From a virus (taxonomy: Duplodnaviria; Caudoviricetes): a DNA stretch of 64,000 nt. The stretch spans positions 2,391 to 66,390 of the IMG/VR virus record IMGVR_UViG_3300033068_001019; one strand, 5' to 3'. The translations under genes and the position numbers were made by a program. Positions 17,530 through 53,647 of this stretch are shown piece after piece. Position 1 is the first letter of the stretch. Each line of letters starts with the position of its first letter. The notes under the pieces were generated by a model, which had not been told where the DNA came from, ran no database searches, and saw nothing but the letters and a program-made list of their open reading frames with translations.

Positions 17530-17531
17530 GA

Positions 17532-17687: not shown

Positions 17688-17690
17688 GGC

Positions 17691-18337: not shown

Positions 18338-18369
18338 ACGAAGCAACGAAGCGACGAAGCAACGAAGCA
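18338..18369. repeat. Tandem 8-mer ACGAAGC(A/G) x4
   Basis: Read directly; a degenerate x3 copy lies at 19889-19912. Confidence 0.85.
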
Positions 18370-18571
18370 ACGGCGCCCGGGTGGGGGCAGCTGCGTGGTG
18401 CCGCGCTCGTGCTGCGCGGTGCTCGGGGCGTCGACGCCGCACGCCGTGCCGGGTGGGCGTCGAGCCCTCGCCCATAAAGACCCGCCGCGTGGCCACGCAC
18501 GCAGCGCCAGGCACGAGGCCGAAGCCTCGCACCCGCCACGACGCAGCGCGCGCCGTGGGCTGCGCCAGCGC

Positions 18572-18916
18572 TTACTTGCGCTGGAGCAAGAAGCGCTCGA
18601 TGTCCTGCATGTCCTCCTTCAGTGCGCCGAAGAACGCCTTGGCCGGGCCGACGAACGGTGCGACGAAGCGGATCACCTTCGCGTACACGCGGGCGTACTT
18701 GAAGAAGATCTCGTCGTTGATCTCGATCACGACGTGGCTGGGCCGACCCGACAGGTCTTGGCACACGTCGACCGAGAAGTTCGCCAAGTGGCTGATCGGC
18801 TCGATCTTGCGGGCCTCGTCCGCATCGGCGGTGGTGATGAGCTCGGCCTTGACCAGCTCGCCGACGACGATGTTGGCCACGTCCTGGACGGTGGTGGTGC
18901 TGATGTAGATACGCAT
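18572..18916 (-). CDS. Hypothetical early protein
   Basis: Start MRIYIST with GGAGA upstream. Confidence 0.75.
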   Translation of the reverse strand: MRIYISTTTVQDVANIVVGELVKAELITTADADEARKIEPISHLANFSVDVCQDLSGRPSHVVIEINDEIFFKYARVYAKVIRFVAPFVGPAKAFFGALKEDMQDIERFLLQRK

Positions 18917-18939
18917 GATGGTCTCCGGTGAGTGAAGCA

Positions 18940-18977
18940 AACAAAGGGTGGAGCGCCAGCACCATTGCCGGCGCTCC
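18940..18977 (-). terminator. Possible intrinsic terminator
   Basis: GGAGCGCCGGC-AATGGT-GCTGGCGCTCC followed by ACCCTTTGTTT on the minus strand. Confidence 0.45.
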
Positions 18978-18986
18978 GGGTGAATT

Positions 18987-19403
18987 TCAGGCGGCCGATC
19001 CCTGGGCCGCGGCCTTGAGTTCGGCCATACGCGCCATGACCAAGTCGCGGTCGACGAAGGCGCCTTCCGCCAGGCCGAGTTCGGCGCGCAGCTGCGCCAG
19101 CGCGACGAACCAAAGGTTGGGCTGCGTCTTGACCGGCATGCGGCCGACCTGTGTGCCGCGCGCCTCGTTCGACCGCAGACTGACGACCTCGGCGCGCAGG
19201 GTCTTGAACGCTTCGCTGGCGAGGTTGAGCCGGCCGTTGAGGACGGTGACCGCTTCAGTGAGGCCGGCGACCATCTGGCCGAGCTTGGCAATGGTCTCGG
19301 CATTCGTGACGGCGGCGGCCTCGAGGTCGGCGCGTTGTGCATCGAACGCAGCTTGTTGGGCTGCGAGGGCGGCCTCGAGGGACGCAACAGTGGTCTTGGA
19401 CAT
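18987..19403 (-). CDS. Coiled-coil early protein
   Basis: 138-aa Ala-rich heptads; GGAGA RBS. Confidence 0.75.
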   Translation of the reverse strand: MSKTTVASLEAALAAQQAAFDAQRADLEAAAVTNAETIAKLGQMVAGLTEAVTVLNGRLNLASEAFKTLRAEVVSLRSNEARGTQVGRMPVKTQPNLWFVALAQLRAELGLAEGAFVDRDLVMARMAELKAAAQGSAA

Positions 19404-19471
19404 GGCGGTTCTCCGGGGTGTGTTGGGTGGATCACCGCCGGCCTGCGCCAGCGGTGTGTGCAGGTGGCGGC

Positions 19472-19765
19472 TTACGCCGTGGCCTTGGTGGCCTTGCGGG
19501 TGGTGGCCTCGGCCTGGGCCTGGGTCTTGGCCTCGGCGCGCAGCCTGAGCAGCTCGGCGCGACGGGCCTCGGCCTTGGCCTGCGCCAGCGCGAGGTTGCG
19601 GTCCATCGCTTCGCAGCGGTCTTCCCAGGCGATCACCACACCCTCGCTGAAGCCTTCGCCGATCTCGCCAGTGGCCGCGATAGCCATCTCAGCGCCTTTG
19701 TAGGCCGTGGCTGCGGTCCAGCCGACGACTTTGCCGAGACGGACACCGATTTCCTTTGCAGCCAT
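19472..19765 (-). CDS. Hypothetical early protein
   Basis: Start MAAKEIG with GGAG upstream. Confidence 0.7.
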   Translation of the reverse strand: MAAKEIGVRLGKVVGWTAATAYKGAEMAIAATGEIGEGFSEGVVIAWEDRCEAMDRNLALAQAKAEARRAELLRLRAEAKTQAQAEATTRKATKATA

Positions 19766-20238
19766 GCTGCTCTCCTTCCGCGCCATGTGGGCGCATGCGA
19801 GGACCGGATCAACACGTCCGATCAACTCACACACACCGAATGGGCGGCGCAGCTTGCTGCGACGTAAGACAAGACCAGGACCAGGACGACGAAGCAACGA
19901 GGCAACGACGCAGGCCAGGCGCGCGGCCGGGGTGGGGTGGTGGTGAGCACACCTGACCCGCGAGCACCGCGACGCTGTGCTGCTGCTCTTGCTGTTGCCT
20001 GTGCGTGGTCGGCGACGCAGGCTGCGCCAGCTGACCCTGCACCCGGTGCGTGGTGGGTGGAGCGCTGGGACCCCTATGCCTGGGCGTAAACCGAATCCGA
20101 ACCGGGGGTGCTGTTTGACGCATACCCGTATATGTCTCTACGCCCCCGTCCCCCGCTTCCAAACCCGGAGTACAAAAAAATTTTGCAAAAAAATCCAACG
20201 GGCTAAAATCGCCTCATTTCGTTCAACGACAGACGATC

Positions 20239-20939: not shown

Positions 20940-21224
20940 ATGATCCGCGGAACCGATGGCCTCGACTACCAAGACCTCACGGAAAGACTCCTCGGCAACC
21001 CCGCCGACACGCCGAGGAACGCGTGGGTCGTCCACCTCCGCAAGCCCCAGCAAAGCCCGGGGACCCTCCAAGCGGTCATCGACCTCCCCTTCGACGCCAG
21101 CGTCGACGACTGCATCAAAGCCGTCAACCGCCACCGAGCCCAGGCCCACCTCCGAGCCTACGCCGGCAAGCGCGCCAGCACCCTCATCGTCGACGAGTTC
21201 GGGCTCCCCACCCAGCCCACCTAA
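20940..21224 (+). CDS. 94-aa protein overlapping the TerL N-terminal frame
   Basis: AAGGA RBS and strong C3 codon bias. Confidence 0.65.
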   Translation: MIRGTDGLDYQDLTERLLGNPADTPRNAWVVHLRKPQQSPGTLQAVIDLPFDASVDDCIKAVNRHRAQAHLRAYAGKRASTLIVDEFGLPTQPT

Positions 21225-22842
21225 CCCCCTCGCGCTGGCCCAGAAGGAGCTGGCCGAGCGGGTGCTGTGCAAGCGCCGGCTGATCCCCTTCACCCAGCGC
21301 ATCAACCCGCGCTACGACGCCGGCTGGGTCCACCGCGACATCGCGCGCCGGCTCGAGAAGTTCAGCGACGACGTGGCCAAGGGCCTGTCCCCCCGGCTGA
21401 TGATCCTGATGCCGCCGCGCCACGGCAAGAGCGAGCTGGCCAGCCGCATGTTCCCGGCCTGGCACCTGGGGCGCAACCCCGACCACGAAATGATCGCCTG
21501 CTCGTACAACGTGAGCCTGGCGATGAGCTTCTCCCGCAAGGTCAAGGAGGTGCTGAACGACCCGAGCTACCAGAGCGTGTTCGAGGCCCGCCTGCACCCC
21601 GACTTCCAGGCCAACGAGGAGTGGGGCCTTCAGGGCACGCGTGGCGGCTACGTGGCGGCCGGCGTCGGTGGCGGTATCACCGGCAAGGGCGCACACGTCC
21701 TGCTGATCGACGACCCGATCAAGAACGCCGAGGAGGCCGACAGCGCCGAGACGCGCGAGAAGCTCTGGGACTGGTACGGCTCGACCGCCTACACCCGCTT
21801 GGCGCCCGGCGGCGGCGTGCTGGTGATCCAGACCTGGTGGCACGACGACGACCTCGCCGGCCGGCTGCAGGTGGCCATGGCCGAGGACCCCGACGCCGAC
21901 CAGTTCGAGCTCGTGAAGTACCCGGCGATCGCCGAGAGCGACGAGTTCCTGAACCTCGACACGGACCTGATCGAGTACGACGTGGCTCCGTTGGCCGACC
22001 TCTACGACCCGAAGCACCCCAGCACCACGCCACCGCACGGCGCCGAGTTCACCTGCGCCAGCACCGGCACTCGCTACCGCTTCCTGCGCGCCAAGGGCCG
22101 CGCGCTGCACCCCGAGCGCTACGACCTGGTCAAGCTCAACCGGATCAAGAAGACGATCCCGGCGCGCTTCTGGGCCGCGCTGTACCAGCAGAACCCGGTG
22201 CCGGACGACGGGGCGTTCTTCCTGAAGGAGCAGTTCCGCCGCGCGCCGCTACCGCGCCTGACCACCTCCAACGTGTTCGTCGCGGTGGACTTCGCCATCA
22301 GCGAGAAGAAGCAGAACGACTACACCGTGATCGCCGTCGGCCTGCAGGATGAGGACGACATGCTGCACGTCGCCGAGGTCATCCGGTTCAAGTCCGGCGA
22401 CGGCATGTTCATCGTCGAGAGCATCCTCAACGCTTGCAAGCGGTGGCATAATCCGAGCCTAGTGCTCGGGTTCGAGGACGGGCAGATCTTCCGCGCTATC
22501 GAAACGCTTCTGAAGAAGCGCATGAGGGAGCGGAGGTTCTACCCCTCGACCCAGCTCTTGAAACCCATCACCGACAAGCTGGCCCGCGCAAGACCTTTGC
22601 AAGGGCGGATGCAGCAGGGGATGGTGAGCTTCGCTGATGGTGCTGAGTGGTTCGACGCCGCTCGCACGGAGATGCTTCGGTTTCCGGCCGGTGTGCATGA
22701 CGACCAAGTCGACGCGCTGGCCTGGATGGCGACCATGGCGGTGGGCCGCGAGCCCCCGCGCATCAAACAGGCGAAGGCTCAGAAGTCATGGAAAGACAAG
22801 CTCAGAGGATATGGCGGGACGGTCGGGCACATGGCGGCCTGA
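20956..22842 (+). CDS. terL: Terminase large subunit (start uncertain)
   Basis: PPRHGKS Walker A, LLIDDPIK Walker B, VDFA and HDDQVDAL nuclease motifs. Confidence 0.93.
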   Translation: MASTTKTSRKDSSATPPTRRGTRGSSTSASPSKARGPSKRSSTSPSTPASTTASKPSTATEPRPTSEPTPASAPAPSSSTSSGSPPSPPNPLALAQKELAERVLCKRRLIPFTQRINPRYDAGWVHRDIARRLEKFSDDVAKGLSPRLMILMPPRHGKSELASRMFPAWHLGRNPDHEMIACSYNVSLAMSFSRKVKEVLNDPSYQSVFEARLHPDFQANEEWGLQGTRGGYVAAGVGGGITGKGAHVLLIDDPIKNAEEADSAETREKLWDWYGSTAYTRLAPGGGVLVIQTWWHDDDLAGRLQVAMAEDPDADQFELVKYPAIAESDEFLNLDTDLIEYDVAPLADLYDPKHPSTTPPHGAEFTCASTGTRYRFLRAKGRALHPERYDLVKLNRIKKTIPARFWAALYQQNPVPDDGAFFLKEQFRRAPLPRLTTSNVFVAVDFAISEKKQNDYTVIAVGLQDEDDMLHVAEVIRFKSGDGMFIVESILNACKRWHNPSLVLGFEDGQIFRAIETLLKKRMRERRFYPSTQLLKPITDKLARARPLQGRMQQGMVSFADGAEWFDAARTEMLRFPAGVHDDQVDALAWMATMAVGREPPRIKQAKAQKSWKDKLRGYGGTVGHMAA

Positions 22843-23234: not shown

Positions 23235-25388
23235 ATGCCCATCGACACCAAGATCGCCACCAAGCAGTGGGTCCGGTACGCCTGGGCCCGAGACAATGGC
23301 CATGCCAAGTACGTCGAGAAGGCTGAGAAATGCGACGCCTTCTTTCGCGGCGACCAGTGGGACCGGGCTGACAAGATTGCCCTCGAACGCGTGCGCCGCC
23401 CGGCCATGACGATCAACAAGATCCTCTCGACCATCAGCAACGTGATGGGCGAGCAGATCTTCAACCGCGCCGAGGTGAGCTTCCGCCCGCGCAGCGGCTC
23501 GCCGGCCGAGACCGCTGAGATCCTGACCAAGGTCTTCAAGCAGATCAGCGACAACAACCAGCTCGACTGGAAGCGCAGCGATATGTTCGCCGACGGCATC
23601 ATCACCAGCCGTGGCTTCCTGGACGTGCGGATCGACCACAGCGACTCGATGCAGGGCGAGGTCCGCATCGAGAGCCTGAACCCGAAGAACGTCATCATCG
23701 ACCCGGACGGCGAGGAGTACGACCCCGACACCTGGGGCGAGGTCTTCACGACAAAGTGGGTCACGGCCGACGACATCGCGGTGCTCTACAACGAGGAAGA
23801 CGCCGAGCTGCTGCGCAACCGCGAGCAGAGCTACTTCCCCTACGGCTACGACTCGATCCAGGCCTATCGCGACCGCTTCGGCGACCGCTTCAACCCGATG
23901 TACACGGGCGACTACGACAACAGCAACGTGATGCGCAACATCCGGCTGATCGAGCGCCAGTATCGCGAGCTCGACCGCCAGAAGCACTTCGTGAGCCCTG
24001 AAACGGGTGACATGCGCGCCATCCCGGCGGACTTCGACCGCGACCGTATTTCGTTGTTCGTCGAACGGTTCGGCTTCCAGGTCACGACGAAGCTGGTGCG
24101 CCGCATCAAGTGGACGGTGATCGCCGACAACTGCGTGCTGCACGACGACTGGAGCCCCTATAAGCACTTCACGGTCGTGCCCTACTTCCCGCACTTCCGC
24201 CGTGGCACCACGATCGGCCTGGTCGAGAACCTGACCGGTCCGCAGGAGGTGCTGAACAAGGTCACGAGCCAGGAGCTGCACATCGTCAACACGACGGCCA
24301 ACAGCGGCTGGAAGGTCAAGGCCGGCGGCCTGGTCAACATGACGGTCGAGGAGCTGGAAGAGAAGGGCGCCCAGACCGGCCTGGTGGTCGAGGTCACGGA
24401 CCTGGATGCCATCGAGAAGATCCAGCCCAACCAGACCCCGCAGGGTCTGGACCGCGTCAGCTACAAGGCCGAGGAGAGCATCAAGACGATCTCCGGCGTG
24501 TCCGACTCGATGCAGGGCTTCGACCGCGAGGACGTGGCCGCCAAGGCGATCGAGAAGAAGCGCCAGGCCGGCAGCACGAACCTGGCCAAGCCGCTGGACA
24601 ACCTCACCCGCACCGACTTCATCCTGGCGCGCAACGTGCTGGATCTGGTCCAGACTTTCTACACCGAGGAGCGCATCCTCACCATCACCCACGACCAGGT
24701 GACGGGCGACACCGAGGACTTCACGATCAACCAGGTCACGCCCGAAGGCACCGTGGTCAACGACCTGACCGTCGGCGAGTACGGCGTGGTCGTCACTTCG
24801 GTGCCGGTGCGCGAGACGCTGGAGGACAGCCAGTTCGAGCAGGCCGTGGCCCTGCGCGAACTGGGCGTGGCCATCCCCGACGCCGTGCTGATCGACTCCA
24901 GCCGCCTGATGAACAAGAAGGACATCATCCGCGAGATGCAGGGCAGCCAGGACACCCCGGAGGCGCAGGCCCAGCGCGAGCTGCAGCAGCGCGCGCAGCA
25001 GGCCGAGGTGTCCAAAGCCGAAGGCGAAGCCGCCCAGAAGCACGCCGACGCGCAACTCAAGCAGGCCAAGGTCCAGGAGACCATGGTCAACACCCAGATC
25101 GCTGCCCAGGGCGAGCCGGACGACGGCTCCGGGCAGGCGAAGATGGCCGAGGCCGAGATCAAGGCTGGCCAGGCAGAGCATGAAGCGTCCCTGAAGGAGC
25201 GCGAATTTGAGCGTGACACACAGCTCGCGATGATGGAGTTCGGGCTCAAGCGCGAACAACAGCAGAACGAGCTGCGCCTCAAAGCGCACCAGATGGCCGC
25301 GGACCGAGCAGACCGCCGCGCACAGATGACAGCCCAAGCAGCGGCGGCTGCACAGCAACCGCAACAACCCGCGAAAGGCAACCCATGA
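23235..25388 (+). CDS. Portal protein
   Basis: 717 aa after TerL; FFRGDQW, RPAMTINKI; helical C-terminal barrel typical of podoviruses. Confidence 0.88.
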   Translation: MPIDTKIATKQWVRYAWARDNGHAKYVEKAEKCDAFFRGDQWDRADKIALERVRRPAMTINKILSTISNVMGEQIFNRAEVSFRPRSGSPAETAEILTKVFKQISDNNQLDWKRSDMFADGIITSRGFLDVRIDHSDSMQGEVRIESLNPKNVIIDPDGEEYDPDTWGEVFTTKWVTADDIAVLYNEEDAELLRNREQSYFPYGYDSIQAYRDRFGDRFNPMYTGDYDNSNVMRNIRLIERQYRELDRQKHFVSPETGDMRAIPADFDRDRISLFVERFGFQVTTKLVRRIKWTVIADNCVLHDDWSPYKHFTVVPYFPHFRRGTTIGLVENLTGPQEVLNKVTSQELHIVNTTANSGWKVKAGGLVNMTVEELEEKGAQTGLVVEVTDLDAIEKIQPNQTPQGLDRVSYKAEESIKTISGVSDSMQGFDREDVAAKAIEKKRQAGSTNLAKPLDNLTRTDFILARNVLDLVQTFYTEERILTITHDQVTGDTEDFTINQVTPEGTVVNDLTVGEYGVVVTSVPVRETLEDSQFEQAVALRELGVAIPDAVLIDSSRLMNKKDIIREMQGSQDTPEAQAQRELQQRAQQAEVSKAEGEAAQKHADAQLKQAKVQETMVNTQIAAQGEPDDGSGQAKMAEAEIKAGQAEHEASLKEREFERDTQLAMMEFGLKREQQQNELRLKAHQMAADRADRRAQMTAQAAAAAQQPQQPAKGNP

Positions 25389-26443
25389 ACCCGCTCCTGA
25401 AAGCCCTGATGCGCCGCCTGCAAGCCCCGATGGACGGCGACGGCAACGACCTGGGGGGTGGCACACCCCCCGACCGTGGCGACGACTTCACCCCCACCGA
25501 CGACGAGCCGGCTACCAAGACGCCCGAACCCAAGCCGGCCGCCGCGAAGCCGGGCGAGGCCAGCGACCCCGATGCTGACCCCGATGCTGACCCCGATGCC
25601 GACCCCGACGCCAGCGGCGACCCCGACCCCGATGCGGACCCCGACGCCGAGGCAAAGGCCAAGGACGAACCCAAGAAGAAGGACCAGCGCATCCCGCTGT
25701 CCCGCCACAAGGAAATGCTCGAGAAGGAGCGCGCCAAGCGCGCCGAACTCGAGCAGAAGCTGCAGCAGTACCAGCGCGGCAGCGACGTGGCCGAACTCAA
25801 CGAGAACATCACCAAGGCCGAGGAGCGCATCCTCGGCATGGAGAAGGAGTACGCCAAGCTCCTCGCCGATGGTGAAGTCGAGAAGGCCACGACCCTGATG
25901 GGCCAGATCCGCCAGATCGAGCGCCAGATGTCCGAGGCCAAGAGCGACATGAAGATCGCCGCCGCCGAGGCGCGCGCAACCGAGCGGGCGCGCTACAACA
26001 TCGCGCTCGAGCGCATCGAGAAGGCTTACCCGCAGCTCGACCCCAACGGCGACGAGTACGACGCCGAGCTGATGCAGGATGTCGTGGACCTGAAGGCGTC
26101 TTACGAGGCACGTCGTGGTCTGACCCCGACCGACGCCATGCAGAAGGCTGTCGAGAAGCTGGTCGGCGCGCGCACCGCGACACAGAAGAAGGTCCTCGAC
26201 ACCACGCCGCGCGTCACCGAGAAGGACGTGGCGGAGGAAGTCAAGGCTGAGCGCAAGAAGGAAGCCGTCAAGAAGACCCTCGAGGCCGTGGGCAAGCAGC
26301 CGCCCAGCGCCGCCAAAGTGGGCCTGGACAGCGACAAGGCTGGCGGCGCCCTCACGCCGAAGGACGTGCTGAAGCTCAGCCAGGACGACTTCAGCAAGCT
26401 CAGCGACGAGATGCTCGCCCGCCTGCGCGGCGATGAACTGTGA
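25385..26443 (+). CDS. Scaffolding protein
   Basis: Acidic DPDA repeats, RIPLSRHKE, coiled coils; sits between portal and capsid. Confidence 0.75.
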   Translation: MNPLLKALMRRLQAPMDGDGNDLGGGTPPDRGDDFTPTDDEPATKTPEPKPAAAKPGEASDPDADPDADPDADPDASGDPDPDADPDAEAKAKDEPKKKDQRIPLSRHKEMLEKERAKRAELEQKLQQYQRGSDVAELNENITKAEERILGMEKEYAKLLADGEVEKATTLMGQIRQIERQMSEAKSDMKIAAAEARATERARYNIALERIEKAYPQLDPNGDEYDAELMQDVVDLKASYEARRGLTPTDAMQKAVEKLVGARTATQKKVLDTTPRVTEKDVAEEVKAERKKEAVKKTLEAVGKQPPSAAKVGLDSDKAGGALTPKDVLKLSQDDFSKLSDEMLARLRGDEL

Positions 26444-26802
26444 AGGACACGACCATGATGCACATACCTTCTCCCTTGCCCAAGACCACCGACGAGTGGC
26501 TGGAGCTCAAGATCCAGGCCAAGGGTCTGAACGCACCGCGCGTGACCCCGGCCGACCTCGACGCCAACATCGTCCACACCGAGATTGTCAAGCACGTCAG
26601 CCACAGCGGTCAGGTGCTGCGCTGGGCGGTGCTGACGACGCGCAATGGGTTTGCCGTCACCGGCCGCCCATCCGCAAGCGTATCTGCGGAGAACGACGAC
26701 GCCGAGACCGGCGAAGAAGTGGCGATCGAGAATGCCCGCAACGAGCTCTGGCCCCTCATGGGCTACGAACTGCGCAGCAAGCTGCACCAGGAGCAAGCAT
26801 GA
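26440..26802 (+). CDS. N4 gp49/Sf6 gp66-family protein (Acb4-like sponge candidate)
   Basis: RVTPADLDANI...LTTRNGFAVTG..SASVSAENDDAETGEEVAIENARNELWPLMGYELR. Confidence 0.75.
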   Translation: MKDTTMMHIPSPLPKTTDEWLELKIQAKGLNAPRVTPADLDANIVHTEIVKHVSHSGQVLRWAVLTTRNGFAVTGRPSASVSAENDDAETGEEVAIENARNELWPLMGYELRSKLHQEQA

Positions 26803-27233
26803 ACCACTACATCGGCACCAAGATCGTTCGCGCGGAGCCCATGACGCGCCAGACCTACAACGACTTCCGCGGCTGGACGCTGCCGGCCGACGAGGACGGC
26901 GCGGACGAGGGCTACCTCGTTGAGTACCTCGACGGCGGCAAGCCGAACGTCCCGACCCACGCCGGCTACGTCAGCTGGAGTCCGAAGGCACAGTTCGACA
27001 ACACTTACCGCGTGCTCGGCAGCCTGACTTTCGGCATGGCTCTCGAGATGCTCAAGAAGGGCCGTCGCGTCGCACGCGCCGGCTGGAACGGCGCCGGCCA
27101 GTTCGTCTTCCTGATGCCCGCCATGTCGCCGTACCGCGCTTACCTGGCGCTGAAGACGGCACAGGGCGACATCGCCACCTGGGCGCCCAGCTGCAGCGAT
27201 GCACTGGCCGAGGACTGGACCATCGTGGAGTGA
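26799..27233 (+). CDS. tad2: DUF2829 / Tad2-like protein with an extra N-terminal YIGTK domain
   Basis: LTFGMALEMLKKGRRVARAGWNGAGQFV...WAPSCSDALAEDW. Confidence 0.8.
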   Translation: MNHYIGTKIVRAEPMTRQTYNDFRGWTLPADEDGADEGYLVEYLDGGKPNVPTHAGYVSWSPKAQFDNTYRVLGSLTFGMALEMLKKGRRVARAGWNGAGQFVFLMPAMSPYRAYLALKTAQGDIATWAPSCSDALAEDWTIVE

Positions 27234-27237
27234 CGCC

Positions 27238-27459
27238 ATGAGCCAGTACCAACCCCACGAACAGCGCGTGATCGACGAGAAAGCCGATCTTGACGCTCGC
27301 GCCGCCAAGCTGGCGGTGTTCCTGAATGGCGAGGTCTTCGCCGGCCTACCGCTGGTGGACCAGCAGCTCCTGGCGCTCCAGCACGATGCCATGGGTGCCT
27401 ACAGCTACATCCTGGGCGAGCGCATCGCGCGCTTCAAGCCCGTCGAGGTGCAGCCGTGA
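27238..27459 (+). CDS. crAss001_48-related helical hairpin protein
   Basis: PHEQRVIDEKADLDAR..KL..F...Q..AM..YS.ILGERIARF. Confidence 0.7.
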   Translation: MSQYQPHEQRVIDEKADLDARAAKLAVFLNGEVFAGLPLVDQQLLALQHDAMGAYSYILGERIARFKPVEVQP

Positions 27460-27695
27460 ACGCCTTCGACTCCGCCCTCATACCCTCCGAGGCCGACGAT
27501 CCGAACGTCTGGCGTCTTCGGGGCCGGATCTCCGAGATCACGCAGGCGATCGACAAGGAGAACGCCACGCTGAGCAACCTCAATGAGGAGGCCACGCGCC
27601 TCGAGAACAAGCGGCGCTGGGTCCGCGAGGCGGTTGGAGCCCTGGAACTCGAGAAGTCGCTGCTCCAGGCCTGGATCAACACCACCCAGAAATAA
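27456..27695 (+). CDS. Coiled-coil hypothetical protein
   Basis: 79 aa; GTGA overlap with the upstream gene. Confidence 0.7.
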   Translation: MNAFDSALIPSEADDPNVWRLRGRISEITQAIDKENATLSNLNEEATRLENKRRWVREAVGALELEKSLLQAWINTTQK

Positions 27696-27722: not shown

Positions 27723-27767
27723 TGACCTCGTTTGTCGTTCGACGAACGAGGTCTTTTTTCGTACACT
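27723..27767 (+). repeat. 45-bp terminator/promoter/operator unit, copy 1
   Basis: GACCTCGTT...AACGAGGTC stem plus T6; TCGACG-17-TACACT; 41/45 identical to 28243-28287. Confidence 0.85.
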
Positions 27768-27812
27768 TGCCGAGGCGCCGCCGGCGCCACCCAACCAACC
27801 ACCGAGGTAACT

Positions 27813-45355: not shown

Positions 45356-48300
45356 ATGCCGACACTCCGCGACCTGGCCCCCGGCTACTCCGGCGCCCTC
45401 TCCGATCTGGCCCCCGGCTCTGCGCCACCCCAAGGCGGGGTGGGCGGCGGGGTGGCGGACTTGCCCACGAACTATGCCCCCGACCCGCGCCCGACCATGC
45501 GCGAGTTCGAGCGCAATGGCATGAACCAGATCGAGAAGGGCTACCGATCCGGCCGGATCACGGACCAGGCCAACTGGCTGGCCAACCAGGAAGCCCTGGC
45601 GGCAGCCAGCGGTGACACACGCAAGGCCGCGAGCCTGCGCGACGAGATCACCAGCCTGCAGCAGGAGGCTGCCTACTTCGCCCCGCGCGAGCAGGACGTG
45701 ACCAAGCTCGGCTGGGACCCTGCGCGCATCGTTGACTGGGCCGGCGGCGCCATCGGCTCGACCGCGGCGTCGATGCAGGACGGCCTGGTGTCTGGCGCTG
45801 GCCTGCGCGGCGCAGCGGCGGCGGCTGGGCTCATCCCCCACCCACTCGCTCAAGGGGCCAGCAAGCTCCTGGGTGGCGCCTCGATCGCCGTGCCCTTCGC
45901 GACGAACTACCTGTCGAATGCCGGCGAGACCTACAACGAGATGGCGAACGACAAGGCGCTGATGGCGAGCACCACGCCGATGCAGCGCCTGGCGACGGGC
46001 GCAGGCGCCGGCCTGGTCATGGGTGCGCTCGACACCATCGGCGATGCCAGCCTGCTGCGGCGCGGCCTGGGCGGCACGATGGGCAGCAAGACCATCGACA
46101 CCGCGCTCGATGCCGGCGGTTTCGCCGGCCGGTTCGTCAAGGACAACCTACTCGAGGGCGTCACCGAGGTGGCCCAGACCGGCGTGCAGAAGGCCGGGCA
46201 CAGCCTGCTCAACCCGAACCGTGACACCAGCGGCGACGTGGGCGAATACATCAACTCGTTCGCCCAGGCAGCAGTCGGCGGCATGCCCATGTCTGCCGCC
46301 GGTAACGCCGTGCAGTCTGCGCGCGAGACCCTACAGAACCGCGTCGGCCCCGAGGCCGACAAGGCTGCCGGCTCCAAGCGGGGCGACGAGATTGACCTGC
46401 GCACCGGCAAGACGACCAGCGGCGCTGACGCGCCGGCCGAGGACATCATCCGCGCCGCCGCCAGCGCGCCGACGCACAAGTTCACCGCCGAGCAGCAGGC
46501 CCGGCGCGATCTGCTGGACGGCAGCTTCGACATCCCGGACGACCCGATCGACCTGGAGCTCAAGACCACCGACCGCTGGACCGGGCTGAAGGAAGAGCTC
46601 GCCCGCCAGGGCGCCAAGCCGGAAGCCCAGAAGCTCATGACGGACCTTGACGCCGTCGATCTGTCGGACCCGCTGGCCAACGAGCACCCGGCCATGAAGG
46701 CGGCGGCGGACTTCGTGCGCCCCTACGCCGGCCTGGACGAGGAGCAGCTGGCCAAGGCCATGAAGTCGGTGAGCAAGCGGGGCCGCAAGCTGAGCACCTA
46801 CGAACCGGACGACCCCCGGGACAGCGGCATGCTGGGTGAAGCCGGCCCGAACGTGGCCGGCGTCGACACCAGCAAGATGGCGCCGACCGACCCCAAGAAG
46901 TTCGCTGCGCAGCAGCGCGTGCGCCGCGAGGTCCAGCGCCAGATCGAGGAGAACGCCAAGAACGCCGCCGGCCTACTGGAGTACGCGCTGGTGGGCGGCG
47001 AGACTGGCAAGCGCGCGCCGGCAGCGCAGCGCAACGCCTTGCGCCAGATGGCCACCGAGATCGCCAACATGGCTCACATCAAGGGCCAGCCGGAGCCCGG
47101 CGAGCTGTTCGCCGCCGAGCGCTACGGGCGCATCATCGGGTCGCTGTTGAAGGAAGGCACCCCCGAGACGCTGCAGCAAGTCGGCTACTCGACCGGCGCA
47201 CAGGGTTCGCCGCTGTTCTCCGCGCTGCTGGGTGCCGCCGTGCGCGCATCCGGCCGGCTGGACAGCACCGCCGCCAAGCAGGAGCGGATCAACCGCGACA
47301 CCGCCGCCAACCAGCTGGTCAGCCTGATCCCGAAGGACACGCTGACCGCGCTCATGGAGAAGGGCGTGAACCTTCAGGGCGACGAGAACCAGCGCCACTT
47401 CATGCTCGACGGCCTCGAGTCGTTCTTCTATGATGGTGAGGGTCCTTTCACCGAGAAGAAGCTCACGTCGATGCTGGGCAAGGAGACCCTGGGCAAGCTC
47501 CGGGAGTTCTTCACCCGCCCGATCGAGGCCCGCTTCGACCAAGAGTCGGCCATCGACGAAGGAGACCTGAACGACGTGGCCGAGGCCCAGGCGGCCGAAG
47601 CCGACGAGTTCGTCAAACAGCACGCCAGCAACGCCGTCGACCGGAGCTCGCCCGAGCGCCTGGTGTTCGCCCATGGCCGGCGTGACACGACCGAGGATGC
47701 CCGTGCCCAGTTCAGCGGCGAGCTTGTTGGCAAGGTGCGCGAGGCCCTCAAGCGCGGCACGGGCCTGACCGGCGTCAAGCTGCCGTCGATCGCCCGCATG
47801 CCAGAGCTCGACGAGGCTGGCGAGTGGAGCGCCGAGGACATGCTGTCCACATTCGACCCGGAGGCCAAGGACATCGAGCTGCCGGCGCGCGGCGACGACG
47901 CTGGCACCACGGCGGTGCTGCCGGCCAACTCCAAGCTCTGGCGCGTGGCCAAGTACGCGACGGAGCGCTTCGCCGGAAACGAAGAGACCGGCGAGCAGCC
48001 GACCCACGCTGTGCGCCTGTCCACCGTCAAGGAGGAGCTGGATGCTGCCGGCGTCCACCCGAACAGCCGCCTGGACCTGATGCTGGGCTACCTGCTGGCC
48101 GGCAAGAAGATCAACGACGCCGACGCACAGAAGCTCAGCCGCGATCTGCGCCACGCCCGCGCCACGAGGATCATGCTGGACAAGATCAACCGCGTGCTGA
48201 CCGACACGAGCGCGATGCCACTGCGCGACCGGGCGGCCAAGCTCCTGCAGCCGGAGCGCGTCGACCCGGCGGGCAAGGTGATCCCGAGCGACCTGCAGCG

Positions 48301-51300
48301 CGCGGCTAAGCTGCTGCCCGAAGCTGACCGAGCCGCCCTGAGCGAGGCACGGCAGGGCAGCAGCCAGGCCGAGCGCCTGCGCACCACGCTGCTGGCTCTG
48401 GCCAAAGGCCTGACCGCCGCGGCCGATGCGCGCAGCCAAGGCTTCAAGGAGTCGCTGGGCCTGCACGTTGAGGCGGGTGATGTCGACCAGGCCGTCAACG
48501 AGTTCTTCAACAACCGCTTCCAGGTGGTCGCCGAGCAGAAGACCAACCGCGACCACGACAAGATGTCGGCGCAGGACATCAAGCGCATGACCGACAGCGC
48601 GCAGGGGCGGCTGGACGCGGCTGAAAAGGCCGGCATCGGTCTGGAGCCCGAGGCGCGCGAGCAGGCCCGGCGCAAGGTCCTGGCCGAGGAGGGCACGATC
48701 CTGTTCATGAAGGGCAGCAAGGAGCTGGCTATCCGAGCCCACGACCTGGTCAACTGGTCGCGCAACGCCCTGTTCAGCACGACGGCATCCAAGGAGGTCA
48801 GCAAGCTGGACAAGGCCACGCGCGAGGGCTACCTCAACCACCTGAGCCAGGGCATCGCCGCCCTACTGGACTCGGGCCACGCCAGCAACATCTACACCTA
48901 CGGCTGGGACGGCCGGCTGGGTAAGGAGTCGCGACGCGCCATGAAGTGGCCACTGGGAGCACGTCAGGACCACCAGAAGCAGCGCCGCTTCCCTGGCTCG
49001 TTCCCGATCGAGGGCGGTGTGGAGACCAAGACCATCGGCCAGATCCAGTACGGGCGCGACAAGAGGGCCGCGGGGCGCATGGGTGATGGCCAGCTGCTCG
49101 ACCCGATGGAACGCAGCCTGCTCGACATCGCGGCAGCCGACGAGCGGTCGGAGGAAGCCGCCAGGAAGTTCCAGGACGGCGAGCGCAAGAGCTTCGCCGA
49201 TCTGGAGCGGGCTGACCCCGAGGGCGACGGCTACGCGATGGAGGTCGACCGCAACGAAGGGCTCGAGCGCGACCTCGAAGAGCGCGCCTACCTCAAGCGC
49301 CAGAAGGACATCCAGTGGGCGGCCAAGACGACCGCCGAGGACCAGGCCGGCACCGTGCCCATGAACCCGGACTTCGCACCGAAGCCGGTGAAGGGCCCGG
49401 ATGGGAAGTTCCAGAACCCGACCAACCCCGAGGTCAAGCTCAACCCCGAGCAGGCGAAGGCTGATCAGCAGCGCGCCTCCTGGCTGCGCGGCGAGATCAA
49501 CCGGCTGAAGGCGCTGCACCTGAGCGGCGGACCGCAAGCAGACCGGGCCATGCGCCGCATCGTCGCCCTGTCGCAGTCGCTGAAGGAACTCGACGCTCGT
49601 GGCAAGGTCGAGGGTCCTGGAGCCAGTGCCAGGCCAGCTTCCTGGGGCGAGCAGCTGGCGGACCCGAACGCGCCGATCCAGGTGCGCGAGCACAAGGGCT
49701 CAGGCTACGCCGCGCGCACCCGCGAGAATGCCAACGCAGCCGGCGCCACGGTCGCCATCGCGGCGGACTTCACGACCCCCGGTGAGAAGCTGACGGCGAG
49801 CGCCGCCGGCAATAGCCTGCTGCAGATCGACATCAACACCAAGCCGCAGGACGCCGGCCGGCAGCTGGCCGAACACATGCGCAAGCTGGGCGCGGACACG
49901 CTGAACGTGGCCGGCAACGGCATCTACACCCTGGCGGTCCACGGCTTCGACCAGGCGCGCGTGAACAAGGTCGTCCACGACATCCTGGCGGTGGCCAACA
50001 AGATCTGGCCGATCAAGGGCATCGTGTCGGGCGGCCAGACCGGCGTGGACATTGCCGGCGCCGTGGCGGCGAAGGTGCTGGGCATCCCCGCCACGATCAC
50101 CCTGCCCAAGGGCTACCGCCAGCGCGGCGTTGACGGGGTGGACGCGAACCACACCCGCGCGCAGATCGGCGCCCAGATCCTGGATGGCGCCAAGGCGCTG
50201 GGCTGGCAGCCGCCGGCTGGGACCCAAGCGAAGTCGGAACGCGCTGCCGCGCCAGCGCAGGCCAAGCCTGTCAACGTGTGGTACGGCAGCGGCGAGAACG
50301 CCGAACTCAGCAACCTGGCTGCGCGCCCATTCGAGGCTGGCGGCAGGAAGTACCTCTCGGTCGAGCACGCCTACCAGTCGTGGAAGAGCGGGAAGTTCGA
50401 TCAGGCGACCTACGACAAGTACCAGACGGCGGGTCGCAAGATCGCCGGCACGCTGGGCACCAAGACCGAGGGTGGCTGGAACGTGCGCCTGATGGAGCGC
50501 CTGGTCAAGCTGTCGTTCGAGCAGAACCCCACCGCCGCGCAGGCGTTGCTGGCTACCGGCGACGCACCGATCACCCACACCCAGGACGCTGGCGTGTGGA
50601 AGACCGAGTTCCCGCGCATCCTCGAGAAGGTCCGCAGCGAGCTGGCGAGCAAGCCGGCCGCGGCCCGGCCGACCCCCGGTCAGGTCCAGGCCACCCCCGC
50701 CCCTACTTCCATGGTCCAGGCGGCCAAGGCAGCGGCGGCGCAGGACTCCTGGAACGACGTTCCCACAGACCGCAAGCTCTCGGCCTATGAACCGGACCCC
50801 GGAAAAACGGCTCAGGAGCGCCCGGACCCGCTGACCCAGCCTACCCCCTCGGACGAGGATCTGGAGCGCGTGCGGGCCCATCTGGGCCGCATGCTGGGGG
50901 ACAAGATCAAGGTCGTGTTCGAGAAGACCCTCGACGCTCAGGGTGAGTGGGTCGAAACTGATAAAACGATCCGCCTCGCTATCAGTTCTGTCATGCCGAT
51001 GCTCAGCACGGCGAACCACGAGGCCCTACACGCCTTCTTCTCGGGCGTGCTGGCTAACCACCCAGGCGCCAAGGAGACGCTGCTGGCGGTGGCCACCGAC
51101 GCGCGCAACCTGGGTCGCGTGGAGGCGATCCTGGCCAAGGGCAAGGACGGCAACAAGGCAGCGATCGAAGCCATGCGCGCCAGCCCCGAAGAGGCCTTGG
51201 CCTACACCTTCCAGTTCTGGGCCGAAGGCCTGCTGCCCATCGACAAGAAGCCGCAAGGGTTCTTCCAGAAGATCCAGCGCTTCCTGCGCGAGGTGTTCGG

Positions 51301-53647
51301 CCTGGTGCGCGACAGCGAAAAGGCCCTCGAGGTCTTCCAGGCCCTGTACGACGGCAAGATGGCCGAGCCGTCCGCCGCGCAGAAGGCGCTCGACGGCATC
51401 ATGGCCTCGGGTGAGCGCGGCAAGCGGTGGCGCCAGAAGACGGACAAGCAGCTCGAGCGGATGCGCTCGATGGTCATGACCTCGCACCACATGATGCGCA
51501 ACAGCGAAAGCGCGGCCATGCGCGACATCGCCGCGAAGTTCTTCACCAACGCCGGCAGCACCAAGCTGGGCACCGAGCCGGGCATCCTGAACCGCCGTGA
51601 CACCGAGAGCAAGAAGTGGGCGACCGAGTTCCAGCTCCTGCTCAAGGGGCTGAGCCAGGAGGACATCGCCAGCATGGCCAAGCACGACAACGAGCACAAG
51701 TGGGAGGATCACCCGGACCCGGAGCTCAACAAGCGGCTGCGGGCGCTGTACGCCATGACGCGCCGGTTCCGCGAGGACTACCTGCTGCCGGCCGGCATCG
51801 AGCTGGGCATGCGCGACGTGCAGGAGCTGGCCAGCGGTGGCGAGGACCACCGCTACACGCCCATGGTCTGGAGCGTGCAGACCCTAATCGACAAGAAGGA
51901 CGACTTCTTCGCGATGCTCAAGCAGGAGCGCTACAACAAGACCATGAACGAGATGCTGGCCACGATGCGTCAGGTCAAGCCGGACGCCGAGGCGGACGAT
52001 GTGATCGACGCCATCTACCAACTCCTGATCGACCGCAATGGGGTGGAGGAGGTCGGAAAGCTGGACGCCCAGCGCGAGGACGGCGTGCTGTCCCCATTCT
52101 TCGCCAGCGAGAACGCCCGCAAGCTGGACTGGATCACGCAGGAGGACCGCGGTCCGTTCCTGAGCCAGGACCTGATCTACAAGATGACCTCCTACCTCCA
52201 CCAGGGTGTGCGCGCGGCCGAGTACGTGCGGACCTGGGGGCCCGGCGGCAAGATGCTCAAGGAGCTGCTGGTGCGCGAGGGTGACGTGACGGGCATTGAT
52301 GCCAAGGGCGAGCCAATCACCGCCACGGCCGACGGCCCATTCATGCGCGAGCTGCGCGAGGCTGCCGCCGCGCAGAAGATCCCAGCCGACAAGGTCGAGG
52401 ACTGGGTCCAGCGCCGCTACGACGATGAGACACGCGCGGTTGGCGCCATAGAGGGTGTGCTGGGCAAAGACATCAGCGAGAGCATGCGCAAGCTCAACAG
52501 CGGACTGATGGCCTACCAGAACGCCCGGTTGCTGCCGCTGGCGGTCTTCAGCTCGATGCTCGACCCGAACAACATCCTGGTCTCGGGCGGCAAGCTCGAC
52601 GACATGATCTACGCCTACCTGCGCGGCATGAAGGCGGTGTGGCGAACCTGGAAGGACCTGGCGTCGGGCACTGAGCTCAAGCCCGAGGAGGACCGTGACG
52701 CGCTGGATGCGATGGCCGTCGGTGCGATCGACAACAACGTGTTCCTGGAGCGCCAGGGCAACGTCCAGGTGTCGGAGTACATGACCAACGCGGCGCATCG
52801 GTTCAACAGCAAGTTCTTCCTGGCCAACGGCCTGACCATGTGGGACCGCCAGATGCGGATCAGCGCCACACGCGCGGGCATGAAGTTCATCGAGCGCAAC
52901 CTCAAGGGCGTGGACGCCGACAGCGAGCGCAAACTCCAGGCCCTGGGCCTGCCCGCCGACAAGGCCGTGACCGACAAGGATGGCCGTCTGGTGGTCGACC
53001 CAAGGCTGCTGGCCACCCAGCGTGCGCAGGAGCTGGCCGGCGCCGGCTGGGAGAAGGCCACGCCGGCGCAGCGCAAGCAGTGGGCACTCAACCAGCTGGC
53101 CAAGGCGCGCGACGACGTGAAGCCCCAGCAGGAGGCGGTCAAGCGGTTTGTGCAGCGCTCGGTGCTGTCACCCAACGCAGCGCAGCGCCCGGCTTGGGCC
53201 AGCGACCCGCACTACGCCGCGCTGTTCCACCTGAAGTCATTCACCTACAGCTTCCAGGAGACCATCCTGCAGCATGCCCGCGAGGAGGCCGAGGCGGGCA
53301 ACTATCGTCCGGGCATGCAGCTGCTGGCCGGCATCCCCATCATGATCGCCGCCGACATCACGAAGGCGCTGATCACGGGTGGTGGCTCGCTGCCGGGCTA
53401 CATGGCCAACTGGGGTGTGGCCGACTGGGTGCTGCATGGCATCGGCCGCGCCGGCATGAGCGGTGTGGGCGAGATCGGCCTGAACGCCTGGGGCGACCCG
53501 ACCAGCCTACTGGGCCCGACCGTCGACCAGATCAGCGACACAATCATGGACCCAGGCAAGAAGTTCGGGTCGCTCGACATGGTTCCTGGGCTGCGCATCA
53601 TCCACCCGAACATCGGGCTGGATGTGTTCGACCACGCCGACTGGTGA
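45356..53647 (+). CDS. Giant internal virion/polyvalent protein with SLOG, NADAR and HExxH domains
   Basis: 2763 aa; YAARTRENA...LNVAGNGIY...IVSGGQTGVD (about aa 1441-1617); LSN...SVEHAYQSWK...LLATG...W (about aa 1637-1763); HEALH at aa 1888. Confidence 0.85.
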   Translation: MPTLRDLAPGYSGALSDLAPGSAPPQGGVGGGVADLPTNYAPDPRPTMREFERNGMNQIEKGYRSGRITDQANWLANQEALAAASGDTRKAASLRDEITSLQQEAAYFAPREQDVTKLGWDPARIVDWAGGAIGSTAASMQDGLVSGAGLRGAAAAAGLIPHPLAQGASKLLGGASIAVPFATNYLSNAGETYNEMANDKALMASTTPMQRLATGAGAGLVMGALDTIGDASLLRRGLGGTMGSKTIDTALDAGGFAGRFVKDNLLEGVTEVAQTGVQKAGHSLLNPNRDTSGDVGEYINSFAQAAVGGMPMSAAGNAVQSARETLQNRVGPEADKAAGSKRGDEIDLRTGKTTSGADAPAEDIIRAAASAPTHKFTAEQQARRDLLDGSFDIPDDPIDLELKTTDRWTGLKEELARQGAKPEAQKLMTDLDAVDLSDPLANEHPAMKAAADFVRPYAGLDEEQLAKAMKSVSKRGRKLSTYEPDDPRDSGMLGEAGPNVAGVDTSKMAPTDPKKFAAQQRVRREVQRQIEENAKNAAGLLEYALVGGETGKRAPAAQRNALRQMATEIANMAHIKGQPEPGELFAAERYGRIIGSLLKEGTPETLQQVGYSTGAQGSPLFSALLGAAVRASGRLDSTAAKQERINRDTAANQLVSLIPKDTLTALMEKGVNLQGDENQRHFMLDGLESFFYDGEGPFTEKKLTSMLGKETLGKLREFFTRPIEARFDQESAIDEGDLNDVAEAQAAEADEFVKQHASNAVDRSSPERLVFAHGRRDTTEDARAQFSGELVGKVREALKRGTGLTGVKLPSIARMPELDEAGEWSAEDMLSTFDPEAKDIELPARGDDAGTTAVLPANSKLWRVAKYATERFAGNEETGEQPTHAVRLSTVKEELDAAGVHPNSRLDLMLGYLLAGKKINDADAQKLSRDLRHARATRIMLDKINRVLTDTSAMPLRDRAAKLLQPERVDPAGKVIPSDLQRAAKLLPEADRAALSEARQGSSQAERLRTTLLALAKGLTAAADARSQGFKESLGLHVEAGDVDQAVNEFFNNRFQVVAEQKTNRDHDKMSAQDIKRMTDSAQGRLDAAEKAGIGLEPEAREQARRKVLAEEGTILFMKGSKELAIRAHDLVNWSRNALFSTTASKEVSKLDKATREGYLNHLSQGIAALLDSGHASNIYTYGWDGRLGKESRRAMKWPLGARQDHQKQRRFPGSFPIEGGVETKTIGQIQYGRDKRAAGRMGDGQLLDPMERSLLDIAAADERSEEAARKFQDGERKSFADLERADPEGDGYAMEVDRNEGLERDLEERAYLKRQKDIQWAAKTTAEDQAGTVPMNPDFAPKPVKGPDGKFQNPTNPEVKLNPEQAKADQQRASWLRGEINRLKALHLSGGPQADRAMRRIVALSQSLKELDARGKVEGPGASARPASWGEQLADPNAPIQVREHKGSGYAARTRENANAAGATVAIAADFTTPGEKLTASAAGNSLLQIDINTKPQDAGRQLAEHMRKLGADTLNVAGNGIYTLAVHGFDQARVNKVVHDILAVANKIWPIKGIVSGGQTGVDIAGAVAAKVLGIPATITLPKGYRQRGVDGVDANHTRAQIGAQILDGAKALGWQPPAGTQAKSERAAAPAQAKPVNVWYGSGENAELSNLAARPFEAGGRKYLSVEHAYQSWKSGKFDQATYDKYQTAGRKIAGTLGTKTEGGWNVRLMERLVKLSFEQNPTAAQALLATGDAPITHTQDAGVWKTEFPRILEKVRSELASKPAAARPTPGQVQATPAPTSMVQAAKAAAAQDSWNDVPTDRKLSAYEPDPGKTAQERPDPLTQPTPSDEDLERVRAHLGRMLGDKIKVVFEKTLDAQGEWVETDKTIRLAISSVMPMLSTANHEALHAFFSGVLANHPGAKETLLAVATDARNLGRVEAILAKGKDGNKAAIEAMRASPEEALAYTFQFWAEGLLPIDKKPQGFFQKIQRFLREVFGLVRDSEKALEVFQALYDGKMAEPSAAQKALDGIMASGERGKRWRQKTDKQLERMRSMVMTSHHMMRNSESAAMRDIAAKFFTNAGSTKLGTEPGILNRRDTESKKWATEFQLLLKGLSQEDIASMAKHDNEHKWEDHPDPELNKRLRALYAMTRRFREDYLLPAGIELGMRDVQELASGGEDHRYTPMVWSVQTLIDKKDDFFAMLKQERYNKTMNEMLATMRQVKPDAEADDVIDAIYQLLIDRNGVEEVGKLDAQREDGVLSPFFASENARKLDWITQEDRGPFLSQDLIYKMTSYLHQGVRAAEYVRTWGPGGKMLKELLVREGDVTGIDAKGEPITATADGPFMRELREAAAAQKIPADKVEDWVQRRYDDETRAVGAIEGVLGKDISESMRKLNSGLMAYQNARLLPLAVFSSMLDPNNILVSGGKLDDMIYAYLRGMKAVWRTWKDLASGTELKPEEDRDALDAMAVGAIDNNVFLERQGNVQVSEYMTNAAHRFNSKFFLANGLTMWDRQMRISATRAGMKFIERNLKGVDADSERKLQALGLPADKAVTDKDGRLVVDPRLLATQRAQELAGAGWEKATPAQRKQWALNQLAKARDDVKPQQEAVKRFVQRSVLSPNAAQRPAWASDPHYAALFHLKSFTYSFQETILQHAREEAEAGNYRPGMQLLAGIPIMIAADITKALITGGGSLPGYMANWGVADWVLHGIGRAGMSGVGEIGLNAWGDPTSLLGPTVDQISDTIMDPGKKFGSLDMVPGLRIIHPNIGLDVFDHADW

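Follow-up and report, generated by a model that had tools for sequence, protein, structure and literature searches.

Polyvalent virion proteins organized around a zincin hub are an already known kind of phage product (Iyer et al. 2017, PMC5512222). The phage NADAR domains so far tested remove ADP-ribose from guanine in DNA and thereby defeat DarTG1 (PMC11825919); the T4 protein AdfN (gp30.3), which is not packaged, neutralises DarTG1 (PMC11825919), and the E. coli protein YbiA is a small-molecule N-glycosidase. Iyer et al. 2022 (PMC9503650) predicted both the packaging of NADAR domains into virions and the coupling of SLOG with NADAR in phages, describing viral NADAR and SLOG as 'typically standalone', and YpsA-clade SLOG domains have been implicated in the sensing of cyclic ADP-ribose (cADPR) variants (PMC9503650). 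Here a locus is described in which these elements meet in a single gene, located in a 64,000-nt window that corresponds to nt 2391-66390 of the 66,390-bp virus record IMGVR_UViG_3300033068_001019 and to which all coordinates below refer. The gene encodes a giant protein of 2763 amino acids (aa). On balance, this product is best explained as a polyvalent virion protein of the KPP25-like podophage lineage, whose SLOG and NADAR cargo would counter host ADP-ribose immunity through de-ADP-ribosylation of DNA.

SLOG and NADAR Domains of the Giant Protein

The virus record is 99% complete (CheckV), and the entire window is therefore phage DNA. The giant gene (45356..53647, + strand) is an uninterrupted open reading frame (ORF) of 2763 aa plus stop, as seen in the ORF list and its translation, and it closes a rightward structural operon. 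The original prediction, made from the letters of the sequence, had read SGGQTGVD, EHAYQ and HEALH motifs in this protein as marks of a SLOG domain with swapped halves, a NADAR domain and a zincin-like peptidase segment. The motifs are found at aa 1558 (nt 50027-50050), aa 1670 (nt 50363) and aa 1888 (nt 51017-51031), respectively, and all three domain identities were upheld by the results that follow: for the SLOG by a Pfam score, for SLOG and NADAR by structural matches of an AlphaFold (AF2) model, and for the zincin by invariant residues, a modeled core and structural matches. The joint presence of SLOG, NADAR and zincin in one structural-operon product also agrees with the polyvalent-protein logic that had been suggested.

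The cpYpsA-type SLOG domain occupies 49661..50215 on the + strand (aa 1436-1620). The isolated segment scored 48.6 bits with the Pfam cpYpsA model PF12694, against a cut-off of 26.2, and a profile of 41 homologues compared with PDB sequences matched 3IMK, a solved cpYpsA structure named 'putative molybdenum carrier', with an E of 1.9e-11. This match is made of two stretches in inverted order, query residues 112-148 aligning to chain residues 5-41 and query residues 4-82 to chain residues 54-136. The GGQTGxD unit is C-terminal in the SLOG of the giant protein and N-terminal in the Pfam model and 3IMK, and the Pfam alignment shows the swapped order as well as the PDB-profile one. The AF2 model of aa 1436-1770 had a predicted local distance difference test (pLDDT) value of 94.3 overall and of about 97 in the SLOG part; the top structural match for its N-terminal half was 3imk_A (Z 9.2, root-mean-square deviation [rmsd] 2.3, 107/158 residues). 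The structural alignment is limited to model residues 1-114, as expected under circular permutation. The SLOG is thus a circularly permuted cpYpsA-like relative, having the Pfam score and the fold of the family but not its collinear order. Permutation is a family trait and not a peculiarity of the giant gene: about 95 homologues have the same order, standalone phage proteins among them (phrog_10774 aligns collinearly).

Conservation in the 95 homologues reaches at least 90% at residues Y1451, R1454, T1455, N1458, E1477, N1517-G1522, G1559-D1565, R1590 and D1596, and likewise in the motifs YxxRTxxNA, NxAGNG and GGQTGxD. This conserved polar set argues for a putative ligand-binding or catalytic pocket. 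In the literature found, no biochemical activity has been demonstrated for any member of the cpYpsA family.

The NADAR domain (50258..50665, + strand; aa 1635-1770) follows directly. The sequence score alone is insufficient for this domain, and the fold was assigned because of the structural matches. The closest structure to the NADAR model was E. coli YbiA, 2b3w (Z 13.4, 135 aa, rmsd 2.8), followed by the Phytophthora NADAR with ADP-ribose, 8bau (Z 13.2 over 132 aa); the DarG1-type NADAR of G. lovleyi, 8bat, gave Z 8.6, the first unrelated structure Z 6.3, and Foldseek returned a probability of 1.00 for the NADAR fold. A NADAR family profile matched YbiA with an E of 1.2e-4, and phrog_1017 was matched with an E of 4e-7. 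Aa 1635-1770 accordingly adopt a NADAR fold. Glutamate and lysine residues spaced by 7 are needed for guanine de-ADP-ribosylation (PnNADAR E43/K50; EcC7 E88/K95), as reported by Schuller et al. 2023 (PMC11543638), and T4 AdfN carries the same pair as E36/K43 (PMC11825919). The putative catalytic residues of the giant protein, E1670 (nt 50363-50365) and K1677 (nt 50384-50386), are likewise 7 apart and correspond in the alignment to E36/K43 of AdfN, a pair proven essential in EcC7 NADAR, PnNADAR and AdfN; conservation among 87 NADAR homologues is at least 90% at both positions.

An exhaustive HMMER search with the SLOG-NADAR dyad as query found 1,983 proteins at an E of 0.001 or better. Both domains were present in 28/181 of the retrieved proteins, in either order and usually 5-35 residues apart, and in 11/19 of the full pairs the KPP25-type C-terminus was missing from the carrier. 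Such repeated, independent juxtaposition on different scaffolds indicates that SLOG and NADAR are probably functionally coupled. The coupling agrees with the predictions of Iyer et al. and with the jumbo-phage paper of Iyer et al., where DUF4326 was linked to SLOG and NADAR. In Bacillus phage vB_BspM_AgentSmith, a stretch at 46388-46786 is 57% identical to the NADAR and lies in a gene annotated as 'putative toprim domain-containing protein', which suggests a possible further fusion context for this NADAR subfamily.

An Exchangeable Cargo Slot

A search of 5.8 billion proteins yielded 38 giant relatives. When mapped on the query, their ends are conserved (aa 1 to about 1315 and about 1805-2763), and the middle is unrelated or only partly related. 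The similarity to relatives P0003 and P0004, for example, ends at aa 1315 and restarts at aa 1805. The interrupted part defines a variable cargo slot (49301..50767, + strand; aa about 1316-1804), which is here filled by SLOG and NADAR. SLOG alone occurs in many relatives, NADAR alone in P0008, and NADAR precedes SLOG in P0023, P0040 and P0041. The three closest proteins after P0002, whose C-terminal part is 74-78% identical, have neither domain.

The cleanest case of exchange is P0002 itself, which is 82% identical overall. Its SLOG is about 90% identical, and an unrelated segment of about 125 aa replaces the NADAR alone. Identity breaks in the Ala-rich linker and resumes in the Ala/Pro linker before the zincin. 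The Ala-rich SLOG/NADAR linker (50216..50257, + strand), recognized by composition, is thus the left recombination boundary of the NADAR cassette: aa 1621-1640 contain 35% Ala and 10% Pro, and pLDDT dips to 54. The right boundary is an Ala/Pro-rich linker (50666..50842, + strand; aa 1771-1829), with 19% Ala and 17% Pro over aa 1766-1835 and a pLDDT below 50 in a second model. These measurements support the Ala/Pro linkers reported earlier between the domains. The replacement domain of P0002 (aa about 1640-1765) had no Pfam match at an E of 0.001 or better; an ASCH-like G-K-x-T...T-T-R motif was noted in it by eye.

Further relatives were sought in genomes and viral contigs, where a single C-terminal sequence query found no loci and the family alignment A2 was needed. 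A family-alignment pattern scan of IMG/VR then gave 80 loci, many on contigs of 60-72 kb. Their giant ORFs measure about 1,800-3,200 aa, and the distance of the zincin core from the C-terminus is always about 800-950 aa. SLOG was present in 4/80 of these, NADAR in 1/80 and both in 0/80. Ten further loci of the same layout came from bacterial genomes or metagenome-assembled genomes (MAGs) of Caldimonas, Azonexus, Verminephrobacter and others, SLOG being found in 1/10. Over all related loci, SLOG occurs in 5/90, NADAR in 1/90 and both in 0/90. Together with the swap in P0002, these counts make the module strongly variable among relatives, a point that the original prediction had proposed to check. 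The middle of the giant protein is, therefore, an exchangeable cargo slot between conserved ends, seen across more than 100 relatives.

DUF7831 (E 1e-39 to 1e-42), DUF4326 and a weak DprA-like SLOG match were found in the slots of related giant proteins (L063:7001-10000, L019:7001-10000). Most of the remaining slots match no Pfam family, and together they constitute a reservoir of uncharacterised domains. Some relatives lie within large Burkholderiales-type contigs, such as L085 (Caldimonas sp., 771,694 bp) and L093 (a Verminephrobacter MAG), where they are presumably prophages. This location gives a hint that the lineage has a betaproteobacterial host range, and the G+C content of the structural genes (65-70%) fits such a range.

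The Zincin-Like Segment and the Carrier

The HExxH segment is part of the conserved C-terminal module and lies outside the variable cargo. Its zincin-like metallopeptidase core (50852..51223, + strand; aa about 1833-1956) includes the HEALH motif and a downstream pair, E1945/E1946 (nt 51188-51193). In 22 relatives, with identities as low as 23%, H1888, E1889, H1892, E1945 and E1946 do not vary, and a second set of 20 relatives from viral contigs keeps H1888, E1889, H1892 and E1945 without exception; the counterpart in KPP25 reads FHESMH...PEER. The AF2 core (pLDDT about 90) consists of a helix, three strands, the HExxH helix, two helices and a Glu-bearing helix (model elements: helix 35-49, strands 54-58, 65-68 and 73-77, HExxH helix 84-98, Glu helix 146-158), the same core layout as that described for polyvalent-protein peptidases (PMC5512222). 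All top rows of a Foldseek search were zincins (anthrax lethal factor, collagenase G, selecase, ArdC, MATCAP, IrrE), with E values of 0.04 or worse, and re-scored Z values were moderate: 8.4 for anthrax lethal factor, 6.6 for IrrE, 5.9 for ArdC, 5.3 for Spartan and 5.0 for selecase. No Pfam peptidase model matched the segment. On the strength of the model, a zincin-like metallopeptidase fold whose metal site looks intact is accepted.

The conserved C-terminal module (50768..53644, + strand; aa 1805-2763) holds this core and a hydrophobic segment. In a tblastn search of phage genomes, aa 1817-2745 aligned to the 'virion structural protein' of the Pseudomonas podophages KPP25 and phiR18 with 27.6% identity (E 3e-82), and aa 2357-2725 matched phrog_30152, also a 'virion structural protein', with an E of 3.5e-85. 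The late operon upstream on the + strand carries the large terminase TerL (20956-22842), the portal (23235-25388), the major capsid protein (28419-29528) and tail genes. The ATG of the giant gene lies 12 nt downstream of the stop of the preceding ORF, and the terminators at 53.79-53.86 kb downstream belong to converging minus-strand genes. The giant gene is thus the last structural gene, as had been supposed. From its C-terminal homology and gene position, the giant protein is probably a component of the particle. In a paper on phage tf, particle proteins were identified by gel size only.

The conserved N-terminal module (45356..49300, + strand; aa 1 to about 1315) has a Gly/Ala-rich start and was delimited by alignment to relatives, with 49-56% identity to P0003-P0005 and 25-40% to more distant relatives. 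No Pfam family was found in the N-terminal 1430 aa, the zincin segment or the C-terminal 650 aa of the giant protein, nor in its close relatives P0003-P0005. A protein-atlas search with the N-terminal 1435 aa returned an LPD22 label on 12% of one cluster, which is below a reliable level, and otherwise only unnamed viral clusters; an LPD-type domain is a weak candidate here.

The top hydrophobic segment, aa 2656-2674 (nt 53323-53379; Kyte-Doolittle 1.69), is part of the Gly-rich C-terminal tail, which is conserved, and could, judging by hydropathy, be a candidate membrane-inserting element of an ejection protein. Weaker Gly/Ala-rich hydrophobic stretches occur at aa 143-234. One plausible segment plus weak N-terminal ones are insufficient for a claim of membrane insertion, which was dropped. 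Homology to the C-terminus of the N4 virion RNA polymerase (vRNAP) was also considered and found no support, so that it stands only as a lead: local BLASTP matches were non-significant (E 1.3 around HExxH; E 2.3 collinear near the end), and hhalign gave a probability of 0.14 against the N4 vRNAP C-terminal region, using the family alignment A2 and the trimmed C-terminal alignment A4. Alignment A4 has 41 invariant columns, and its profile matched nothing meaningful among PDB sequences.

Neighboring Genes

Base composition over the SLOG-NADAR module shows no anomaly, and hence no sign of very recent acquisition. No DarT or ADP-ribosyltransferase (ART) match was found among the genes neighbouring the giant gene; searches of the record for DarT (PF14487) and ART-PolyVal also gave no match and are uninformative, since the control genomes were silent too. 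The structural module does contain a Tad2-like domain (PF11195, 74 bits) at aa 199-265 of the ORF at 26433-27233 (+ strand), which suggests that this phage already targets NAD-derived immune signals. As a parallel, in phage N4 (L094) a gene annotated as DUF2829, a Tad2-like family, (9004-9486) adjoins the virion RNA polymerase gene (9524-20026).

The Tad2-like ORF is one of several small + strand genes (26433-27586) that separate the portal-scaffold region from the capsid gene. Two candidate frames overlap there, the Tad2-like ORF itself and, in another frame, one at 26440-26802 for a protein of the N4 gp49/Sf6 gp66 family (PF13876); a gene for a crAss001_48-related protein (27199-27459) lies in the same stretch. 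A type IV pilin gene (27732-28223, + strand), with a Pilin PF00114 match and an N-terminal methylation motif, is found just upstream of the major capsid gene.

Proposed Function and Alternative Explanations

In the reading favored here, the N- and C-terminal modules would act as a packaged carrier and would probably exit the particle along with the DNA, an exit proposed because the protein is like other giant internal podophage proteins and polyvalent proteins generally. The linker-bounded slot between the modules would take up different small enzyme domains by recombination. The NADAR would be enzymatically active, as an N-glycohydrolase stripping ADP-ribose from the nucleobases (guanine foremost) of incoming and replicating phage DNA, with the SLOG as its nucleotide- or ADP-ribose-binding partner, or as a partner cleaving a second bond. 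Together they would blunt ADP-ribose-based immunity before phage gene expression, and again late, when the protein is made in bulk, and the zincin would plausibly trim or free the cargo. Action on DNA is ranked first, by a small margin, because it is the only activity demonstrated for phage NADARs. The boldest form of this proposal, that KPP25-type podophages have a dedicated slot in a giant ejected protein, which recombination reloads with different counter-defence enzymes, and that its SLOG-NADAR cargo is the first virion-delivered DNA de-ADP-ribosylase, erasing DarT1-type guanine ADP-ribosylation before phage gene expression with the zincin releasing the cargo on entry, is rather doubtful as a whole.

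Several points weigh against the favored reading. A particle usually contains few copies of each internal protein. The KPP25 annotation bears only on the homologous C-terminal part of the giant protein, and a cryo-electron microscopy paper on the KPP25-like phage A1002, searched for ejection or core proteins, does not mention such a protein in the passages covered. The isolated NADAR domain scored 24.7 bits (E 3e-5) with Pfam PF08719, under the curated 35.1, and the relative orientation of SLOG and NADAR is not confidently predicted (predicted template modeling score, pTM, 0.63 in the AF2 model). NADARs carry their third catalytic residue on the last strand: Glu in YbiA types, Asp in DarG1/BC4488 types and His in gp30.3 types. 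Here, by HMMER alignment to YbiA, the position falls on T1740, followed by H1741 (nt 50576-50578), both at least 90% conserved in the 87 homologues. T4 AdfN, in our own reading of its sequence, has Lys-His at the matching spot, and by motif the NADAR looks like the His variant, a resemblance that counts against full activity on its own, since AdfN requires another T4 factor for this (PMC11825919). The N-terminal beta-beta-alpha extension of DarG1, which was proposed to bind single-stranded DNA (ssDNA), is absent, the G. lovleyi NADAR aligning only from its residue 48, and the catalytic Asp of DarG1 (EcC7 D171) is replaced by Thr-His; the domain is, for these two reasons, not of the DarG1 antitoxin type. 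Finally, Iyer et al. 2022 (PMC9503650) held that phage NADAR and SLOG act mainly on soluble ADP-ribose derivatives and not on DNA.

That last proposal leads to the chief competitor of the favored reading, which is possible and less likely by a small margin. It keeps the same carrier and delivery, and has the SLOG-NADAR pair act on soluble NAD-derived molecules, each domain cutting a different bond, so that Thoeris-type cyclic ADP-ribose isomers, ADP-ribose-1''-phosphate (ADPr-1''P) or ADP-ribose conjugates, as immune signals or toxins, would be degraded or sequestered. The same division of labour was proposed for phage SLOG, Macro and NADAR (Iyer et al. 2022, PMC9503650), and the cADPR-variant sensing ascribed to YpsA-clade SLOGs, the small-molecule activity of YbiA itself, and a NADAR without the DarG1-specific Asp and putative ssDNA-binding extension all fit it. 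The Tad2-like domain, of a family of sponges for glycocyclic ADP-ribose (gcADPR), points to selection against Thoeris-type signals, but it also makes a second anti-Thoeris tool partly redundant. Moreover, every phage NADAR so far tested acts on guanine in DNA, the literature searched reports no NADAR activity on cyclic ADP-ribose signals, and few injected copies fit local action on entering DNA equally well.

Two further explanations are less likely than action on either DNA or soluble signals. It is unlikely that the giant protein stays in the particle instead of being ejected, or loses its cargo before packaging, with SLOG and NADAR acting late in the cytoplasm of the producing cell, for instance to protect replicating or packaged DNA, and not as effectors injected in the first minute. 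Such a role would suit a late gene of the structural operon with bulk synthesis during assembly; DarT targets ssDNA exposed in replication, as late proteins begin to accumulate, and the zincin-bearing polyvalent protein DdrB of phage P1 undergoes processing before it is packaged (PMC5512222). A 2763-aa structural protein is, however, an odd route to a cytoplasmic enzyme when standalone versions are common in phages, and these domains recur in giant virion proteins whose carriers are unrelated, which speaks for delivery. Least probable of all is that SLOG and NADAR are dead passengers or spacers and that the HExxH domain is a structural fold serving solely for encapsidation. The zincin-containing region of N4 vRNAP is indeed required for encapsidation of a protein that is packaged unprocessed (PMC5512222), and the NADAR has the sub-threshold Pfam score and non-canonical third catalytic position noted above. 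Against inert domains stand the conservation of catalytic or ligand residues at 90% or more in 87 (NADAR) and 95 (SLOG) homologues, the invariance of HExxH and the downstream Glu down to 23% identity, and the swapping of cassettes as whole domains at linker boundaries.

Should the module enter the host together with the DNA, it would provide a concrete, clonable test of the comparative-genomics prediction that phages pre-load ADP-ribose-removing enzymes. The carrier belongs to a large, previously undescribed family of more than 100 giant proteins from phages of about 60-70 kb, and its exchangeable slot, filled mostly by domains of unknown function, is a place to seek new counter-defence activities. 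The giant protein and P0002, which differ only in the NADAR cassette, represent a natural experiment on the benefit of the cassette to the phage. Phages, ICP1 among them, very commonly carry the permuted cpYpsA-type SLOG, whose repeated fusion with NADAR narrows the search for its substrate.

Comparison With Known Systems

The observation is well supported, but the strategy behind it had been anticipated conceptually. The claim of novelty in the original prediction stands insofar as no characterised virion-delivered NADAR appears in the searched literature; it gives way where packaging and coupling had been predicted (PMC9503650) and where the action of AdfN against DarTG1 had been proven (PMC11825919). 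Three things are new. The carrier belongs to a KPP25-type family of giant proteins in which no polymerase was detected and whose similarity to the C-terminus of the N4 vRNAP is not significant; the swap of a single domain between 82%-identical proteins is a clean case of a cargo slot; and the SLOG is documented to be permuted with respect to the Pfam archetype.

Like the polyvalent proteins surveyed by Iyer et al. 2017 (PMC5512222), the giant protein is a very large product with a virion module, unrelated domains and a zincin HExxH...E hub, and it would share their logic of delivery together with the invading DNA; anthrax lethal factor is the best structural match both of its zincin and of the N4 vRNAP peptidase domain (PMC5512222). 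In contrast, NADAR and SLOG have 0 occurrences in the text of that survey, and the carrier here is of the KPP25 type, with no RNA polymerase, ArdC-N, MuF or other described anchor found. KPP25 ORF088 and its phiR18 counterpart (Kochitakasuvirus) are homologous over the C-terminal approximately 930 aa, including HExxH and EE, and belong to the podophage lineage, with a KPP25 genome of 64 kb compared with 66 kb here. KPP25, however, has nothing that matches the SLOG/NADAR region or the N-terminal part (tblastn).

T4 AdfN (gp30.3; PMC11825919, PMC11125620) shares with the giant-protein NADAR the fold, the Glu and Lys 7 apart, a non-antitoxin phage context, and, judging by motif, a His, not an acidic residue, at or beside the last-strand position that distinguishes the families. 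AdfN differs in being a small standalone protein, whose paper makes no mention of virion, capsid or packaging (PMC11825919), and pairwise similarity is confined to one 33-residue stretch with an E of 0.012; in both sequence and structure the NADAR described here is nearer to YbiA than to AdfN. The DarG1/BC4488 NADAR antitoxins (PMC11543638) have the superfamily fold and the Glu/Lys pair, and by analogy with them the expected chemistry would be hydrolysis of guanine-N2-linked ADP-ribose; they are set apart by the N-terminal extension and by a catalytic Asp in place of Thr-His, and no gene neighbouring the giant gene matched DarT. With the cpYpsA family (PF12694; PDB 3IMK), the SLOG has in common the motifs YxxRTxxN, LNxAG, GGQTGxD and PKG and a Rossmannoid core, and it is permuted with respect to the 3IMK and Pfam order. 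Standalone phage SLOGs (phrog_10774; ICP1, FLC9) are 42-46% identical to the SLOG of the giant protein, in which the domain is, unlike in those phages, embedded in a giant virion protein.

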